Shown: positions 30,001 to 42,000 of the stretch, one piece after another
How the letters are laid out: every line of letters starts with the position of its first letter
Numbering within the stretch: the stretch's first letter is position 1
From: Candidatus Zhuqueibacterota bacterium
GTDB lineage: Bacteria > Zhuqueibacterota > Zhuqueibacteria > Thermofontimicrobiales > Thermofontimicrobiaceae
Assembly: GCA_049322915.1 (NCBI GenBank)
Contig: JBMOPW010000020.1
Coordinates: forward strand, 238,006 to 302,005
Length of the DNA stretch: 64,000 nt
Direction of reading: 5' to 3'
Position numbers: made by a program

Positions 30001-33000
30001 ATATCATTTATTTGCAGGCTGCCTATTTCGACACACAATCGAACCGGCGAATTGTGAATTTTAAGCATCATGTTTTTACGCTGCATTCCAATGAATTTAT
30101 CAAACATGAGCAATACGATGAATTGCGCGAAGTGAAGCTGTCAACAGGTGAACTTGTCAGTGAACCCCCTGTTCCGCAATATTTTCTCAATAAATTTCCC
30201 GCGAATCCCTGGGCGCCATTTTTGGAGTTAGAGTAGCAGTAATGCAATTCTGTGGGATGTCCGGGTGGGCTTGGAATGATGGTGTGTGCCCGGGAATAGT
30301 CATGCTACCACTTACCGTATATTTCCACTCCGTGCAATGATTATTATTTTCAAATCATTCCTGAATAAATTTTAATGTGCTGATACATCCGATAACCGCT
30401 AATGATTGGGAATACTGGCCATGCAAGATGTTACAACCGTGAGATACAGCAATTTTCTGAAAGAGCAATCAGCGTTGAAACGAGTTTCGGAGCAACGCAA
30501 CGCCACTGAGCTTCTGTACCAGAGCGAGAAATTTCAATCAAATACTCCAGTCCAGAGTCTGCCTGGTTGGACGGAATTGCGGCAGAAGCTTTCCGAGGCA
30601 TCCGTCATTTTCTTTCCCAATGATGTGCAGCAGCAGACCTACACTGCGGATACCGGCACCCATATTGTCCCGTCCATCTTCAAGCGAATGCTGGTGAAAA
30701 TCAAGTTGTCCTTTGTATTTCGTCCCGGCTGTGTCGAAGATTTGAGCGTATTTGTGAAATGGGCGTATGAAAACAAGATTCATTACACCATTCGCGGCGC
30801 AGGCACCTGGCCGTTTGGGGGCTGTGTGCCCATCAACGGGGATGTTGTGGTTGATCTTTCTTACCTTGATTTTATGCACGTGGATGAGCGCGAGGGGATT
30901 TTCACATTCGGGGCCGGCGTCGTTTTCCCCAAGGCCAGGAAATTTTTACAGGAGCGGGAATTCACGTTAAAGCAGGAAATCACCAATCCTGGCAGCGGCA
31001 CCATTGCCGGCTGGTTGGCGACCGGCGGCATTGGACTCGGCAGCTACAAATACGGGCATGTCTCCAATTCCGTGCGCGCGCTGCTGGTCATTACCCCTGC
31101 GGGCGAATGCATCACCGTGGATCGGGACGACGCCAACTTCACCAGCTATTTCGGCAGCGAAGGCCAGTTCGGCATTATCGCCGGCGCATCCATGGAGGTG
31201 CGACGGGAATCCTACGTCACCAAGCCGTACGCGTTTTCCTTTACAAAATTCGAAGATGCGGTGCAGTTCATCCACATGCTTGAAAAAGCGCAACTGAAGC
31301 CCACTTCGGTCATTTACTTCAGCGACACCTACATTGCCGAGACGTATAAAATCGAGAAGCGCCACGTCGAAGAGCGACTGAATGAAGCGCTGGACAATAA
31401 CGACCAGACGCGTTTGCGCGAGACGCGCGAAGACCGCGATACCATCGAGGCGATGAAGCAGTACCAGCATGTCGTCGTCATCCATTTTGATGAAAACAGC
31501 GATTACCAATTCGCTTTGAAGTCGCGCCTGTTTGGCAAGAGCGGCGAATTGCGCCGCGCGAGTCATATCAGCTATTTGCAACTGCCCACTGACCTGGCGC
31601 ATATATTCTGGGATCACCGATTTCTGCCGGTGCAGCTTAAAGTCAACGGGCCGACTGTCCTTGTGAGTGAATTCGTGTTGCCGTTGGCGGCGTTTTCGAA
31701 TTTTCAAAACACGCTGCAAAAGGTGCTGGCTCGCTTGCTGAATATCGAGTTGAAGTCGGAAGCGCATCTTCTTCAAGACGGCGAAGTGTTGACGCAAGCC
31801 ATGTTCCTGGCTGACACGCGGACGTTTCGGCACAAGCTCTATTTTTCGCTAATTCCGCTGATGACGCAGGTCGGCTATTATTTTGGCGCCAGGCCGTACG
31901 GGATCGGTCTGTGGAATTATCCCTCATTGAGGCGGTGGCGAAGCGTGAACCGGGAGAAGGCCGATGCCATGATGGCGTTCAAAAAGGAATCGGATCCGCG
32001 CGGTCACATCAACCAGGGTAAATTCATCAATCCCCGGCGGCAGACGTTGGCGTTCAAGCTGTTCAAAATTATCACTCCCCGTTTCAACCAATGGTTCGTC
32101 GCCACCTACGATAAACGGATTCAGCAGAAAAAATTCGTCCTCACCTTCCCATTTCAGAAGTTGGTGTGGAATATCACCCGATTCATTTTCCCGCGAATGG
32201 TGCCGCCGGGGTTGAAAGCCGGAGAGCATGAACCCATCGAACGGATGATTTCAGTTTGCGCCGAATGCGACTCGTGCGAACGGGTCTGTCCGACTTCGGA
32301 TGTGTTCGGACTTTACGGCCCGGCCACGCCGATCACCCGCCGCCGCACAGCGCAGCGCTTGATTGCCGGAGAGAAAATCAGTCGGAATGAGGCGCTGGGA
32401 TTCCTCGCCTGCACCCGCTGCGACAATTGCACCGACATTTGTCCAACCAACATCAACCTCACGCAGGTGTTCGATCTGGTGGAAATGAATCCAAAGTTCA
32501 ACGCCCAGTTGAATTTCAGGAACGGTGAAAAGAAGGAGTATATCGATCGGTTCTGGCAGATCATGAAAGAGAGTCCGCTGTACATCGAACATACGCTGGC
32601 CGTTCAGAAAGAAGAGAAATCGCATCTGGCTCACGGGCTGAAAATTCTGTACGACAAAGGATTTGCCTACAGCGAATTGTACATCGATCCGACCACCTGT
32701 ATCCATTGCGGCATGTGCAGCAACGAAAACGCCTGCATGTACGCTGCCAGAGAAAGCCAGCCACGTCAGATTCCTGAACTGCGCCACATCAACTGCGCGC
32801 TGTGCAATGCCTGCGTTAATTTCTGTCCCCAGAACAAAATCATGGAGCGCACCCGGCTGTATTTCGATAAATTGATCCATCATGCCGTTGATCTGGAAGA
32901 GAAACGCTACTGGACCAAACAGCAGGCGCGGGTGCACGATACAACCACGGTGCAGCGGTCCACGCTGCTCACAGAAATGGCCGACCGCTACGTGACGGAA

Positions 33001-39000: not shown

Positions 39001-42000
39001 TACGACCTCATCCCGGCGCACTTCAAATTTATCGTTCCCAGAGGCGGACTCCGCGGCTATGAGTCCCATTGAGATGAACTAAATGCACCCTGCGGGGTTA
39101 AATTATCAGATTAAAATCGACAGACCTCGCAGGTGCCCATTTATGAAAATGACTATCCCGTCAAATATTTCTTTTCTCAAGTACAGCATTCGCACGCGAC
39201 TGATCCTCCTTTTTTTCCTTTCCACCATCATGATTTTTGCTTCCGCCGGCTATTACCTGAACTGGCAGATTCGCGCGACGCTGGACCATGCGCTCAGTCA
39301 AAATGTCGAGGCGATTGCCTCCACGTTTGCCGGGCAAATCGACCCGGGGCTGATCGTTCACATCCAGCCCGGCGACGAAAATTCCCGCACCTATCGGCAT
39401 GTGCTGCAGCAGTTCGATCAATTCAAGCGGGTGAAAGGCATCTCCCGGATCTACCTGTTTTTAGCCGATGGCGCCAGTCTTGTCGATTCCGATTCAACCG
39501 TGCGAATTGGCCAGAGATACGCGCAACTGAATTACAGTCAGCAGGAAATGCAGGAGGTATTCTCCGGGCGCACGGCCAGTTCGGTTCTCTTTGCCGGCGT
39601 TGGTGGGCGATTGTACAAGTCCGGGTTCGCTCCCATCTGGCACGGCGACAGAGTACTGGCCGGAATCGCCGTCGAAGCCAGCGCGGAAATGCTGGAGGCG
39701 GTCGACGCCATTCGGAACGATCTGCTGATTCTGGGAGTGGCTGTTGCCATCGGCGCCATTTTCGTCGGCGCTATTTTTGCAAACCGCATCACCACGCCGC
39801 TGAAGAAATTGCAGCACGCTTCGGAGAAAATAAGTCAGGGCTATTTCTTTCAGCCAATTCCTGATTGCGGCCGGGACGAGGTTGGATTTCTCAGCAGCAC
39901 CATGGAACAGATGCGCCAGAATATTTTGATTCGGGATAAGCGCCAGCAGGCCATGCTCGCCGGCGTTGCCCATGAAATTCGGAATCCGCTGGGCGGCATT
40001 GAACTCTGCGCCGGGCTGCTGACCAATGACATCGAAAATCACGGATTGAAAAAATACGCCCAGAAAATCCTCGTGGAAGTGCAGCATCTCAAGTCCATCA
40101 TTCAGGGATTTCTGGATTACGCCCGACCCAATCCGGCGGCAAAGCAGTGGACCGACATCCGAGCCGTCTGGGACGAAGTGCAATTTTTGCTGGCCGGCGA
40201 AATGAATGCGGTGACGGTGAGTTTCACGCGCGCGCGCGATGCGGCAACCCTGTTCGTCGATCCCCTGCATCTCAAACAGATATTTTTGAACCTGCTGAAA
40301 AATTCACTGATAGCGGTTGGAACCGATGGAACGATTTTTGTTGAAATACACCGGGCCAACGACGACGTCGAGATCATTTTTTCTGATACCGGCCCGGGAA
40401 TACCGGCCGAATTGCAAAGCCAGATTTTCGAGCCATTTTTCACGACGCGCGAAAAGGGCACCGGCCTGGGACTGGCTGTGGTGAAAAATCTCGTGGAGGA
40501 AAATGGGGGCGTGATTCGCTATCAGGAAGGCGAAGGGGGAGGAGCTTGTTTTGTCATCACGTTTCCAATTGAGCTGATGAGAAGATGAATGGGAAATTCC
40601 AATTACAAAAAGACAAAAAACAAATATAAATCAATGACCAAATTCGAATAGAAAAATTTATTTTGATTCTCGATACAGGACACTTTTTATATAATTGCCT
40701 GTTTGATTGAATTGTCATGCCCGAATGGTTCTATCGGGCATCCATTTGAAAATATTTTTCGAGATTCACGCTAAAAACATGCGATTGAAATGAGTGCCTG
40801 TGGTACGGGACTGACAGAACCACCAAACATAATTGAAAAAGTGTCCGGTAGATTGTTATGTTTCAAAGTAAGTGGTTGTGAAATTGGAAATTCGTATTTA
40901 TTTGTAAATTGAATTTTGCTTTTTTGGAATTTAGAAGAGTAACAAATTATTTTCGTTGCGCAGTTTTAATGATTTCATCAATGCGGAGTAAAAGGTGCCC
41001 GAAATATTGATCGTCGAAGATAACGCCACCATGCGCGAGGCCATGGTTGCCATTGTGGAGCGAATGGGCTATTCCTGCGATCAGGCAGAAAACGGTCGCG
41101 TGGCCCTGGAGCGGTTGGCCGCTAACGCGTATGAGTTTGTCGTGAGCGACTATAAAATGGAAGGCAAAAACGGGCTGGAAATTTTGAACCATATCAAGGG
41201 TACCACCCCGGCGACGGAGGTTCTCATCATCACTGCCTACGGGACAATTGAATTGGCCGTGGACGTGATGAAAGCCGGGGCAGCCGATTTCATCACCAAG
41301 CCGTTTTCCCACGATGAATTCAGGATGAAGGTGGAGCGCATTTTTCAGCGAATCCAGGAACGAAAAGAGCTGTCCCGCATTTCCGATGAAAATGCCTACC
41401 TGCGTCAGGAACTTGACGAGCAGTTCAATTACGGCGATATCATCGGACAGTCCGACGCCATGCGCAAAGTGTACCAGACCATCGACAAAGTGGCTCAGAC
41501 AGATTCGTCGGTGCTGATTTATGGCGAGAGTGGGACCGGGAAGGAATTGGTCGCCCGCGCCATTCACAAAGCCAGCCCGCGGAAGAATAAACCGTTTGTA
41601 CGGGTCAATTGCGGCGCGCTGGCCGAGACGTTGCTGGAATCGGAATTGTTCGGTCACGAGCGGGGCGCGTTCTCCGGCGCCATCAAGAGGAAAAAAGGCC
41701 GGTTCGAACTGGCCGATGGCGGCAGTATTTTTCTCGATGAAATCGGGGACATCTCGGCCAACATGCAGTTGAAATTGCTGCGTGTGCTGCAAGAGAAGGA
41801 GTTTGAACGGGTCGGCAGCGAAGAGACAATTCAGGTGGATGTTCGTATTCTCGCTGCGACAAATAAAAACCTTTCGGACCTGGTTCAGCAGGGGACGTTC
41901 CGCGAAGATCTGTATTACCGGCTGCATATCATTCCCATTTATCTCCCGGCGTTGCGCGAGCGGACGAGCGACATCCCCATCCTGATTGATTTTTTCCTCG

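Follow-up and report, generated by a model that had tools for sequence, protein, structure and literature searches.

The window analysed here, a 64,000-nucleotide stretch of a Candidatus Zhuqueibacterota genome, encodes a giant protein in which a FAD dehydrogenase, an Fe-S wire and the four parts of glutamate synthase are strung together in an unusual order. On balance, we favour its being a donor-fused, NAD(P)H-independent and self-contained enzyme for glutamine-dependent reductive amination, of the glutamate-synthase type. As flavin dehydrogenase, iron-sulfur wire and synthase parts reside in one chain, it probably makes glutamate from glutamine with electrons from a small molecule, not from NAD(P)H or ferredoxin. 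We found no description of the giant fusion in the literature.

A conserved giant reading frame

On translation, the gene is a single open frame of 2883 codons without internal stop; the longest ORF opens at a TTG at 30406, 5 codons upstream. Pfam searches with the whole 2883-residue protein and with six pieces of it reproduce the domain list that the genome-wide survey's note had assigned to this frame. The modules follow one another as VAO/GlcD-type FAD module, four [4Fe-4S] motifs, central-like barrel, FMN/[3Fe-4S] barrel, class-II amidotransferase and GXGXG beta-helix:

30421..39072, + strand: whole gene, 2883 codons plus stop; full-length relatives conserved
30598..32100, + strand: VAO/PCMH-type flavoprotein module, FAD-binding and cap domain (residues about 60-560)
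32251..32454, + strand: first 2x[4Fe-4S] ferredoxin-like domain (residues 611-678; Pfam Fer4_8/Fer4_10)
32683..32838, + strand: second 2x[4Fe-4S] ferredoxin-like domain (residues 755-806; Pfam Fer4_21/Fer4_7)
32977..34152, + strand: central-domain equivalent, a degenerate Glu_synthase-like alpha/beta barrel (residues about 853-1244)
34288..36135, + strand: FMN/synthase barrel (residues about 1290-1905; two insertions that GltB lacks)
35890..35922, + strand: cluster motif C1824-x5-C1830-x3-C1834, aligned with the three Cys of GltB 'GCIMVRQCHSNTCPVG' and invariant in 48 sequences
36217..36222, + strand: predicted autoproteolytic junction N1933/C1934; C1934 invariant and superposed on Cys1
36220..37830, + strand: class-II (Ntn) glutamine amidotransferase domain (residues 1934 to about 2470)
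37885..38175, + strand: helical linker (residues about 2489-2585; AlphaFold secondary structure, pLDDT about 90)
38230..39060, + strand: GXGXG right-handed beta-helix (residues about 2604-2880; Pfam GXGXG)
39055..39069, + strand: invariant C-terminus G-Y-E-S-H, shared by 28 of the 30 translated loci

A family search with the whole-length query returned 217 matches. The best 120 of these comprise a long clade of at least 72 proteins of 2786-2992 residues (query included; full-length relatives 53-80% identical), a short clade of at least 35 proteins of 2503-2565 residues (about 2530) with an identical Pfam set, and 13 shorter matches, most of them labelled partial. The plan is kept in both clades, bearing out the earlier claim that the fusion is conserved. 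In 28 of the 30 genome loci translated the frame stays open through to the common C-terminus ...GYESH, the other two (L018, L029) being frameshifted. G2879, Y2880 and H2883 are invariant across the long and short clades, which share only 39% identity; the family is equally invariant at its glutamine site, at the cysteines of the GltB cluster and at the positions that align with the QGAK and Arg motifs of GltB. The protein falls short of every curated family cut-off; its best NCBIfam score to GltB (NF008730) is 120 bits, where 1047 would be required.

The FAD module and the electron donor

What can be discerned about the donor? Pfam FAD_binding_4 matches residues 98-233 (E 9e-26), a PDB profile match links the module to LctD (7qh2_C, E 6e-23), and it aligns over 476 columns with five GlcD-like paralogues encoded in the same genome (hhalign probability 99.9). 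Its FAD-binding half groups with the GlcD/LctD branch, closest to LctD, D-LDH, D-2-HGDH and GlcD, and the FAD-binding residues of the family are strongly conserved. By hhalign, the equivalents of the carboxylate-binding Arg (R400) and of the first His (H449) are kept. In the profile alignment, the 'GEHG' of the GlcD-like paralogues has become 'RPYG', with P492 and Y493 in place of Glu-His, and the second metal His falls in a gap. According to PMC7801405, both the Glu-His and that second His are strictly conserved in D-2-HGDH, D-LDH and GlcD. As three of the five residues that define the D-2-hydroxy-acid dehydrogenases are thus absent, the term '2-hydroxy-acid-oxidase-like', under which the survey had a flavoprotein plus Fe-S wire replace GltD, describes a resemblance and not membership, while the fused FAD/Fe-S arrangement itself stands. 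Membership in the D-2-hydroxy-acid dehydrogenases is ruled against by the Pro-Tyr and the gap at the site residues; NCBIfam scores are far under cut-off for YdiJ (27.5 of 1350 bits) and glcD (55 of 568 bits). The motif PYGxG marks a separate subfamily, which includes stand-alone FAD+Fer4 proteins of about 600 residues. In at least three lineages and two domain orders such a module is joined to glutamate synthase parts, with PYGxG in every case.

This bears on a hydrogen-borrowing scheme, in which the FAD module would turn a 2-hydroxy acid into a 2-oxo acid and the FMN site would use the same two electrons to aminate it. Overall, hydroxy acid and glutamine would give amino acid and glutamate without an external redox partner, D-2-hydroxyglutarate being the neatest substrate. 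The affinities of the FAD-binding half, the retained R400 and H449 equivalents and the absence of a conserved partner gene nearby agree with such a scheme, and the joining of donor and acceptor sites in a single chain, seen in two or more domain orders, would fit a closed redox loop. However, with three of the five site residues lost, the YdiJ and glcD scores so low, and nothing specific pointing to D-2-hydroxyglutarate, we consider it decidedly unlikely.

Between the FAD module and the barrels, 16 Cys form four CxxCxxCxxxC(P)-type motifs, at 613, 616, 619, 623, 664, 667, 670 and 674 in the first ferredoxin-like domain and at 760, 763, 766, 772, 792, 795, 798 and 802 in the second, all eight in each being invariant in 48 aligned sequences. 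FAD module and Fe-S wire occupy the place where GltD or a ferredoxin would deliver electrons. Could the clusters be fed from elsewhere, by a ferredoxin or GltD-like protein, leaving to the FAD a separate, regulatory or electron-output job? Four clusters exceed the needs of a simple wire, split relatives of putative function work without a FAD module, and the six GltD-type proteins (Fer4_20 matches) encoded elsewhere in the genome could provide an external, NAD(P)H-linked partner. Yet the recurrent fusion of a FAD module that always carries PYGxG, together with its strongly conserved FAD-binding residues, renders this quite improbable.

The central-like and FMN barrels

Residues from about 853 to 1244 align with residues 70-420 of the 846-residue protein of a split relative, which carries Pfam Glu_syn_central (hhalign probability 99.2, E 2e-19); the FMN barrel of that protein is matched as well (probability 94). 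Pfam finds a weak second Glu_synthase copy at 1120-1221 and a weak Glu_syn_central at 1104-1161. The FMN barrel itself matches Glu_synthase with 213 bits (E 8e-63, four stretches, best 1743-1878), aligns with residues 830-1169 of Azospirillum GltB, and its model superposes on GltB 706-1193 (Z 24-26, rmsd 3.2-3.8, 376-401 residues). It aligns with the QGAKxGxGG and Arg motifs of GltB, Q1531, K1534 and R1554 being invariant. His1540 takes the position of the Azospirillum residue Gln943, which belongs to the GGQ of QGAKPGEGGQ. The three Cys of the GltB 'GCIMVRQCHSNTCPVG' stretch we take to be the ligands of its [3Fe-4S] cluster.

A different product, through amination of another 2-oxo acid or formation of an N-substituted glutamate, would be in line with His1540, the two barrel insertions and the unmet curated cut-offs. 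That this domain set can perform other chemistry is exemplified by MgsABC (PMC6237917); the same paper gives the redox cofactors of N-methylglutamate synthase as not known. Against this stand the invariant QGAK and Arg motifs, the lack of a gmaS- or mgd-type neighbour in the flanking DNA (about 6 kb upstream, 8 kb downstream), and an own genome without another glutamine-dependent glutamate synthase. An input as elaborate as the FAD/Fe-S parts also speaks for a net reduction, which the N-methylglutamate synthase reaction is not known to need. We therefore regard a different product as unlikely.

The amidotransferase and its predicted maturation

Pfam GATase_6 matches residues 2247-2306 with 31.1 bits (cut-off 27). 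Residues 2247-2308 align without gaps to GlmS 67-128, the invariant R2253, N2278, G2279 and D2303 corresponding to GlmS R73, N98, G99 and D123. The domain carries an insertion of about 250 residues after the first strands; its model retrieves GlmS/GFAT/PurF/AsnB/GltB in Foldseek (E 4e-6 and weaker) and yields VIA Z 11-13 against PurF/GFAT/GlmS. Pfam GXGXG, at 2656-2767, scores 30.7 bits in the whole protein, under its cut-off of 32.5, and 33.9 bits in a piece. The beta-helix has a PDB profile match to FwdC (E 1e-8), and its model fits FwdC/FhcC (VIA Z 14-15, rmsd 3.1, 202-215 residues). Amidotransferase and beta-helix superpose as one body on GltB, starting with C1934 at Cys1 (Z 17-18, rmsd 3.7-4.1, 511-573 residues), so that in the models they pack in a GltB-like manner in three dimensions; AlphaFold confidence is low over the invariant amidotransferase core and over residues 830-950.

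C1934, residue 14 of the model, is invariant and superposes on residue 1 of GltB, PurF, GlmS and AsnB. Since it is internal in the fusion, proteolytic maturation is implied, and we predict self-cleavage between N1933 and C1934. At position -1, all 72 long-clade proteins have Asn and all 35 short-clade proteins have Asp; P0125 and P0236 have Ala there, so that conservation does not extend to one cleavage chemistry. Stand-alone relatives have a 30-45-residue leader ahead of 'EGG/CGV', suggesting that maturation at the Cys is a family trait; known GltB proteins likewise bear a leader before the catalytic Cys. If the chain instead stayed uncleaved, the amidotransferase would be inactive or structural and the enzyme would use free ammonia. 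To our knowledge, no class-II amidotransferase has a pro-region of 1933 residues, and the -1 residue differs by lineage. Still, the invariance of C1934 and the glutamine-site residues across clades of 39% identity would be hard to explain in a dead domain, which makes this highly improbable.

Domain order and genome context

The order had been described as permuted. All four GltB modules are indeed present with the amidotransferase after the barrel, but this is no one-off: split relatives have their genes in this very order, central-FMN followed by GATase-beta-helix. In the host phylum, G007 has an 846-residue central+FMN gene and then an 885-residue GATase+GXGXG gene, and G029 has 478, 471 and 889 residues as separate genes in the same order; these split forms are without a FAD module, and members of their cluster carry the NCBI name 'glutamate synthase'. 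P0125 and P0236 share the module order of the 2883-residue fusion, and P0134 (3152 residues) reads GATase-GXGXG-FAD_binding_4-FAD-oxidase_C-Glu_synthase, with the Cys at residue 79. The inter-domain stretches, for which the survey's note had recorded no family match, are mostly explained, 234-610 as the VAO cap domain, 807-1119 as the first half of the central-like barrel, 1879-2246 as the amidotransferase start with its large insertion, and 2308-2655 as the remaining amidotransferase plus helical linker.

The genome that carries the gene is 96% complete. PF00310 matches nothing in it at E<=1e-3, and a further full Glu_synthase domain is absent; it lacks a canonical GltB and has one glutamine synthetase. 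On another contig, a second GltS-like FMN protein lies inside a NuoF/GltD-type cluster. Across 151 genomes of the host phylum, canonical GltB (GATase_2) is found in 5 of 27 carriers of the GATase-GXGXG lineage versus 69 of 124 non-carriers (Fisher p 5e-4, uncorrected for kinship; unpublished genomes G088 and G144 included). As 4 of the 11 genomes of the host family have neither fusion gene nor canonical GltB, and five carriers have both, the fusion is no strict GltB replacement.

Proposed mechanism and comparison with known systems

In the donor-fused enzyme that we favour, a putative small carboxylate-bearing donor would be oxidised at the N-terminal VAO-type FAD, and two electrons would travel one at a time via the four [4Fe-4S] clusters to the cluster beside FMN. 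Cleavage at N1933/C1934 would free Cys1934 as the N-terminal nucleophile, leaving two associated chains of about 1933 and 950 residues. Glutamine would be hydrolysed with Cys1934, and the ammonia would pass through a tunnel formed by central-like barrel, FMN barrel and beta-helix to meet 2-oxoglutarate at the FMN site, where the imine would be reduced to L-glutamate. This would be the glutamate synthase chemistry as set out in PMC8097209. The survey's reading as a glutamate synthase thus persists in its four GltB modules and in the FAD/Fe-S parts at the place of GltD, though not in its donor class or permutation.

The closest characterised likeness is to NADPH-glutamate synthase (GltB alpha + GltD beta) and ferredoxin-glutamate synthase (1ea0, 2vdc, 6s6s, 7mfm, 1ofd/1llw), which share the Ntn amidotransferase, central barrel, FMN barrel with three-Cys motif and C-terminal beta-helix. 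Whereas these run GATase-central-FMN-helix, the fusion runs central-FMN-GATase-helix with an internal catalytic Cys; its amidotransferase is of the GATase_6 and not the GATase_2 type, and in place of GltD it has the fused VAO-type FAD module and four [4Fe-4S] clusters. Like the fusion, MgsABC is made of GltB1-, GltB3- and GltB2-type parts, as described in PMC6237917. It differs in having three small subunits (about 300, 225 and 442 residues) without FAD/Fe-S input, and in genes that adjoin gmaS and mgd.

For the C-terminal 2050 residues, the nearest relatives are the split systems of G007 and G029, with the same order, a long amidotransferase set on GXGXG via a helical linker, and the conserved Cys; their own are the separate genes, the leader ending in EGG before the Cys, the absence of FAD/Fe-S parts and a function that is putative. 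The D-2-hydroxy-acid dehydrogenases (LctD 7qh2_C, D-LDH 8jdb, D-2-HGDH 6lpn, GlcD 9qgz; YdiJ) have in common with the FAD module the FAD-binding and cap fold, the carboxylate-binding Arg and the first His, and GlcDEF and YdiJ likewise link their flavoprotein with Fe-S domains; unlike the fusion, they have the Glu-His of 'GEHG' and a second metal His. Finally, self-cleaving Ntn hydrolases such as gamma-glutamyltranspeptidase, glycosylasparaginase and cephalosporin acylase cut their own peptide bond to free an internal nucleophile, and their two chains remain associated, as predicted for the fusion. While these have other Ntn-superfamily folds and catalyse other reactions, the Asp that precedes the nucleophile of glycosylasparaginase recalls the Asp at -1 in the short clade.

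A giant gene and its relatives

The giant gene (30421-39072, forward strand) forms a single open frame of 2883 codons in the translation of the window. Pfam scans of the whole protein and of six pieces recovered all the domains that the genome-wide survey's note had listed for it.

Domains of the giant protein found with Pfam (residue numbers)
98-233: FAD_binding_4, E 9e-26
611-678 and 755-806: two Fer4 dicluster domains
four stretches: Glu_synthase, E 8e-63, 213 bits against a cut-off of 20.4
1104-1161: Glu_syn_central, a weak match, E 0.004
2247-2306: GATase_6
2656-2767: GXGXG, 33.9 bits in the piece and 30.7 in the whole protein, cut-off 32.5

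A whole-length search returned 217 relatives. Among the best 120 of these 217, 72 (the query included) are 2786-2992 aa long and 35 are 2503-2565 aa long, while the remaining 13 are shorter, most of them bearing the label 'partial'. The two size classes, referred to here as the long and the short clade, have a common domain plan at about 39-40% identity, the short one being without insertions at about 301-350, 801-850, 1551-1650, 1701-1750 and 2151-2200. At the level of loci, a scan of one genome per species confirmed 195 of 232 candidate stretches, of which the best 80 were kept; they resolve into 53 loci, all from metagenome-assembled genomes (two of the loci lying on complete chromosomes) and mostly labelled KSB1, Calditrichota/Calditrichia or 'Cytophagia'. 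The frame is open to the terminal GYESH in 28 of the 30 loci translated; the other two copies, L018 and L029, have 47-48 stops in a single frame and are therefore considered frameshifted or misassembled. The L018 contig also gives a product of 1857 aa (P0079). The giant gene is real and under selection. In an alignment of 48 proteins, for which one in two of the 72 long and one in three of the 35 short sequences were taken, all 16 cysteines of the four CxxCxxCxxxC-type motifs are invariant, and so are C1661, C1824, C1830, C1834, C1934, C1972 and C2368.

The C-terminus, G-Y-E-S-H (window 39055-39069), is the same in 28 of 30 relatives, and the chain closes with the histidine. An end so fixed suggests insertion into a site or a role in metal binding.

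The FMN barrel and a degenerate barrel ahead of it

The family profile aligns to residues 830-1169 of Azospirillum GltB, the canonical large subunit of glutamate synthase. In this alignment, AYSQGAKMGIGGH of the giant-protein family lies opposite KVAQGAKPGEGGQ of GltB, ISPFPFHNCYSIED opposite ISPPPHHDIYSIED and GCDRNRNCHDGCSRG opposite GCIMVRQCHSNTCPVG, and the Arg of 'SYLRG' faces the Arg of 'ARLRH'. The substrate loop QGAKxGxGG and the Arg that follows it are aligned with GltB and invariant in the family. We take the Lys and Arg of these motifs to be the 2-oxoglutarate binders of GltB; that the same machinery yields some other product we regard as unlikely. C1824, C1830 and C1834 align to the cysteine triad of GltB, in a cluster motif adjoining the FMN, and the GltB equivalents are presumably the ligands of its [3Fe-4S] cluster; GltB residue numbers for these roles were not found in the open literature. 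C1661 (window 35401-35403, in PFPFHNCYSIED) is an invariant cysteine where GltB carries Ile, and could act as a fourth ligand, in which case the site would hold a [4Fe-4S] instead of a [3Fe-4S] cluster.

An AlphaFold model of residues 830-1925, built on a 29-sequence alignment (mean pLDDT 68), superposes on the GltB synthase domain (chain residues 706-1193) with Z 24-26 and rmsd 3.2-3.8 over 376-401 aligned residues. Ahead of the FMN barrel, residues about 853-1244 form another barrel of this type, though a degenerate one, for which the model is poor at residues 830-950. By hhalign, it is related to the FMN barrel with a probability of 94, and with 99.2 (E 2e-19) to the N-terminal half of the 846-aa protein of a split relative, that is, a separate-gene system without FAD module; this half carries the Pfam domain Glu_syn_central. 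The central domain of GltB is described as a truncated barrel that is possibly derived from the FMN barrel and lines the ammonia tunnel (PMC8097209). The barrel at 853-1244 lacks the QGAK loop and is therefore the counterpart of this central domain.

An internal, putatively catalytic cysteine

A model of residues 1921-2883 (mean pLDDT 77) matches GlmS, GFAT, PurF, AsnB and GltB in Foldseek (E 4e-6 and weaker), and a second structural alignment superposes GltB chains on it over 511-573 residues (Z 17-18, rmsd 3.7-4.1). Model residue 14, which is Cys1934 within the invariant 'CGVAA', falls on residue 1 of the GltB chain in all six entries but 7mfm, where it meets residue 22; the superpositions of PurF, GlmS and AsnB likewise begin at their residue 1 or 2. 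As the GltB superposition continues from Cys1934 to the end of the beta-helix, which itself resembles FwdC (Z 14-15), the amidotransferase domain and the helix are probably packed against each other as in GltB, although they are sequence neighbours here. An ungapped match of residues 2247-2308 to GlmS 67-128 equates R2253, N2278, G2279 and D2303, invariant across both clades, with R73, N98, G99 and D123, which we assume to be the glutamine-binding and oxyanion residues of GlmS.

The putative catalytic cysteine is 1933 residues away from the N-terminus. Since a class-II amidotransferase requires a free amino group on this cysteine, cleavage between N1933 and C1934 is predicted, which would result in chains of about 1933 and 950 residues. 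An uncleaved, ammonia-dependent enzyme is, in our estimate, most improbable. Pointers to such a cleavage are indirect, namely the invariance of the cysteine and the features of the stand-alone and fused relatives given next. In stand-alone GATase_6 + GXGXG relatives of about 880-900 aa, the cysteine lies behind a leader of 30-45 residues ending in 'EGG' (8/8 found by pattern). The residue preceding the cysteine is Asn in 72/72 long-clade and Asp in 35/35 short-clade fused proteins, and Ala, itself after Asp, in two proteins of a third lineage (P0125 and P0236); these counts and those of the leaders cover only proteins with CG[VIL].. and then [NH]RG within 45 residues. With Asp or Ala at this position in the other lineages, cyclisation of Asn was dropped as a cleavage chemistry for the whole family.

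Domain order as a lineage trait

The domain order had been called permuted in the survey's note. The succession central-FMN-GATase-helix is indeed seen, but it is not a one-off, as split relatives in the same phylum keep it. A profile of the C-terminal third, run against 1.84 billion representatives, gave 1219 matches at E<=1e-3 and 69 at E<=1e-30, many of them fragments; the non-fragment matches include stand-alone GATase-GXGXG proteins. In genome G007, a gene for an 846-aa central+FMN protein is directly followed by one for an 885-aa GATase+GXGXG protein, and G029 encodes proteins of 478, 471 and 889 aa arranged likewise. The C-terminal 2050 residues of the giant protein follow this order too, whereas the split versions have no FAD module. 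On these sequence comparisons, the 'permutation' is a lineage trait, and the giant protein thus appears to be a glutamate-synthase-like enzyme of the 'central-FMN / GATase-helix' type with a donor module fused in front.

Further giants among the matches of this profile share the order of our protein (P0125, 3016 aa; P0236, 2508 aa), and P0134 (3152 aa) has another one, namely GATase, GXGXG, FAD_binding_4, FAD-oxidase_C, Glu_synthase, with its cysteine at position 79, behind 'EGG'. The recurrence of the FAD module with glutamate synthase parts in two different orders argues that the two probably work together.

The putative donor module

What can be discerned about the donor? Residues about 60-560 constitute a VAO/PCMH flavoprotein, and the nearest solved relatives of its FAD-binding half are LctD (E 6e-23), alkyl-DHAP synthase, D-LDH, D-2-HGDH and glycolate oxidase. 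Pfam matches PF01565 at E 9e-26 and the FAD-oxidase_C cap (PF02913) only at E 0.014. By hhalign, the module is related to five GlcD-like proteins of its own genome with a probability of 99.9 over 476 columns, and it is this match that identifies the stretch 234-610, previously listed as unmatched, as the cap domain. In the same comparison, the Arg of 'LWxxRR' (R400) and the first His of 'HAGDGNLH' (H449) are retained, the second His falls in a gap, and 'GEHGIG' is changed to 'RPYGIG', with P492 for the Glu and Y493 for the His. D-2-HGDH residues were thereby mapped by motif spacing via the five paralogues, two of which show the GEHG pattern, and not via the human protein. In human D-2-HGDH, Arg386, His434, His441, Glu475 and His476 bind metal, carboxylate and hydroxyl, with His476 as the base, and all five are given as strictly conserved in D-2-HGDH, D-LDH and GlcD (PMC7801405).

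The curated models TIGR00387 (glcD, 55.2 against 567.9 bits) and NF049975 (YdiJ, 27.5 against 1350) score below their cut-offs, and in the ESM Atlas, residues 1-610 matched nothing but generic FAD_binding_4/FAD-oxidase_C clusters. All fused lineages checked have the PYGxG motif, as do stand-alone FAD+Fer4 proteins about 600 aa long, and this marks the donor module as what appears to be a separate VAO subfamily. The retained R400 suggests a carboxylate as the donor substrate.

Distribution and neighbourhood

The genome of the organism (6.25 Mb, 96% complete) gave no match to PF00310 (GATase_2) at E<=1e-3, a domain found in 13 of 14 reference genomes in the control. It encodes one glutamine synthetase, and its other Glu_synthase matches are only IMP dehydrogenase and, partially, a 525-aa protein. 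GltD-type proteins, resembling the NAD(P)H-oxidising partner of GltB, are encoded elsewhere in the genome; an external electron source for the giant protein is very unlikely in our judgement. The 525-aa protein belongs to a cluster (L061, G000 C14:641000-660000) together with a NuoE-like [2Fe-2S] protein, a 1021-aa NuoF + GltD-type fusion, a Fer2/Fer4 protein, two proteins without assignment and a 952-aa NAD-type glutamate dehydrogenase; this cluster is without an amidotransferase.

Among 151 genomes of the phylum, including the unpublished G088 and G144, 27 carry the lineage-specific GATase-GXGXG (E<=1e-20) and 74 the canonical GATase_2 (E<=1e-10, a stricter threshold that may miss archaeal-type subunits); five have both and 55 neither. 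Canonical GATase_2 is present in 5/27 carriers as compared to 69/124 non-carriers (Fisher p 5e-4, with kin treated as independent). Of the 11 genomes from the organism's own family, 4 lack both.

Neither tblastn of 11 neighbour proteins against the 53 loci nor clustering of 232 flanking ORFs from 37 loci revealed a conserved neighbourhood beyond synteny with the closest relatives, and no partner gene emerged; the enzyme seems to need no dedicated one. The surroundings of the giant gene in the window comprise:

25271-27143: AT-rich stretch (GC 0.37 at 26001-28000) with three minus-strand ORFs (272, 116 and 173 aa), no Pfam match
29610-30236: 208-aa ORF just upstream of the giant gene, no Pfam match, kept beside it in L001, L002 and L003
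39083-40588: HAMP/HisKA/HATPase histidine kinase, beginning 11 bases past the giant gene's stop
40995-42377: sigma-54-dependent response regulator, after the kinase
44634-44649: best sigma-54 promoter-like site of the window, 1 mismatch
44696-47197: DUF3160/Por-secretion-tail gene, just downstream of this site

The kinase and sigma-54 regulator pair directly follows the giant gene only in L001 and L003, the L001 copy of the giant gene being 80% identical to that of the window. A sigma-54 promoter ahead of the giant gene was sought within 30237-30420 and none was found; in the window as a whole, sites with up to two mismatches number 22, with 22.7 expected, and scans for sigma-70 promoters and terminators were at chance level. 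The DUF3160/Por-secretion-tail gene may be the target of the regulator.

Two further loci, from relatives of the same family, L070 (G083:C45:1-8000) and L071 (G124:C151), contain five copies of a fragment of 200-300 nt, spaced 1.2-1.9 kb apart, which encodes residues about 2211-2295 of the giant protein at 77-86% amino acid identity. The first four copies end at residue 2295 and the last spans 2210-2267; they are interspersed with a Fic/DOC gene, a BrnT/CopG-antitoxin pair, a DUF4160/DUF2442 pair and an AAA_14/DUF4143 ATPase. No intact giant gene was seen in G083, in G124 the extra copies precede the 3' part of the giant gene, and the organism's own genome has a single copy of the region. The arrangement resembles a cassette array, with repeats that stem from the best-conserved part of the amidotransferase.

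Proposed mechanism and physiological meaning

On balance, we lean towards a glutamate-synthase-type enzyme with a fused donor module. In such an enzyme, the donor would reduce the N-terminal FAD, from where electrons would pass singly via four [4Fe-4S] clusters to the one next to the FMN; glutamine would be hydrolysed at Cys1934, and the ammonia would reach 2-oxoglutarate at the FMN, where the imine would be reduced. Lactate/pyruvate-type couples lie at about -190 mV. Set against the cofactor potentials of glutamate synthase, given as about -240 mV for FMN and about -280 mV for [3Fe-4S] (PMC8097209), a donor of this type would be feasible once glutamine hydrolysis pulls the reaction.

A closed-loop, 'hydrogen-borrowing' enzyme would go further, in that a hydroxy (or similar) acid oxidised by the FAD would become the 2-oxo acid that is then aminated with the same electrons and the ammonia of glutamine, the chain cutting itself at the internal Asn|Cys. 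The two electrons would travel along its own five-cluster wire, and no NAD(P)H, ferredoxin or quinone would be needed. We consider this distinctly unlikely; if true, the 1933-residue 'propeptide' would be the first pro-region of a class-II amidotransferase known to be catalytic itself.

To our knowledge, the electron source of known forms of glutamate synthase is either ferredoxin or NAD(P)H, the latter by way of GltD or of a GltD-like part fused to the enzyme. A glutamate synthase with a fused donor module, the reading we prefer, would thus add a third electron entry, a fused substrate dehydrogenase, to what is described in PMC8097209 as the only amidotransferase using a redox reaction. The family also provides a test case for the placement of an Ntn nucleophile inside a chain and for the tolerance of glutamate synthase domains to reordering. 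By source label, carriers belong to KSB1, Calditrichota, Gemmatimonadota, Krumholzibacteria and a Syntrophaceae-labelled clade. As most of the carriers searched are without canonical GltB, the GS-GOGAT cycle of several poorly known phyla may run on this family, and metabolic reconstructions in which canonical gltB/gltD are the criterion for GOGAT would list them as GOGAT-negative.

Comparison with known systems

In their source records, the relatives go by the names 'FAD-binding protein' or 'glutamate synthase-related protein'. On the giant protein, every curated NCBIfam model stays below its cut-off, NF008730 scoring 119.9 bits against 1047. A fusion of a GlcD-type protein with glutamate synthase, or a permuted glutamate synthase, was not found described in the literature searched, which excluded most subscription journals. 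With the D-2-hydroxy-acid dehydrogenases, the giant protein has the FAD_binding_4 and cap fold in common, but it keeps only two of their five strictly conserved residues. Compared to MgsABC, whose three subunits are distinct proteins encoded alongside gmaS and mgd genes, it is a single chain, and no glutamine-synthetase-like or sarcosine-oxidase-like gene was found among the 13 neighbouring ORFs scanned. No GltD domain is present in the chain or in the adjoining genes. With GltB, it shares the FMN barrel, the three-Cys motif, the counterpart of the central domain and the GXGXG beta-helix; however, the order is central-FMN-GATase-helix instead of GATase-central-FMN-helix, and the cysteine at the position of GltB Cys1, there the first mature residue, is residue 1934 here. 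The chemistry is most likely that of glutamate synthase; what is new is the way electrons enter, the arrangement of the domains and the position of the nucleophile inside the chain.
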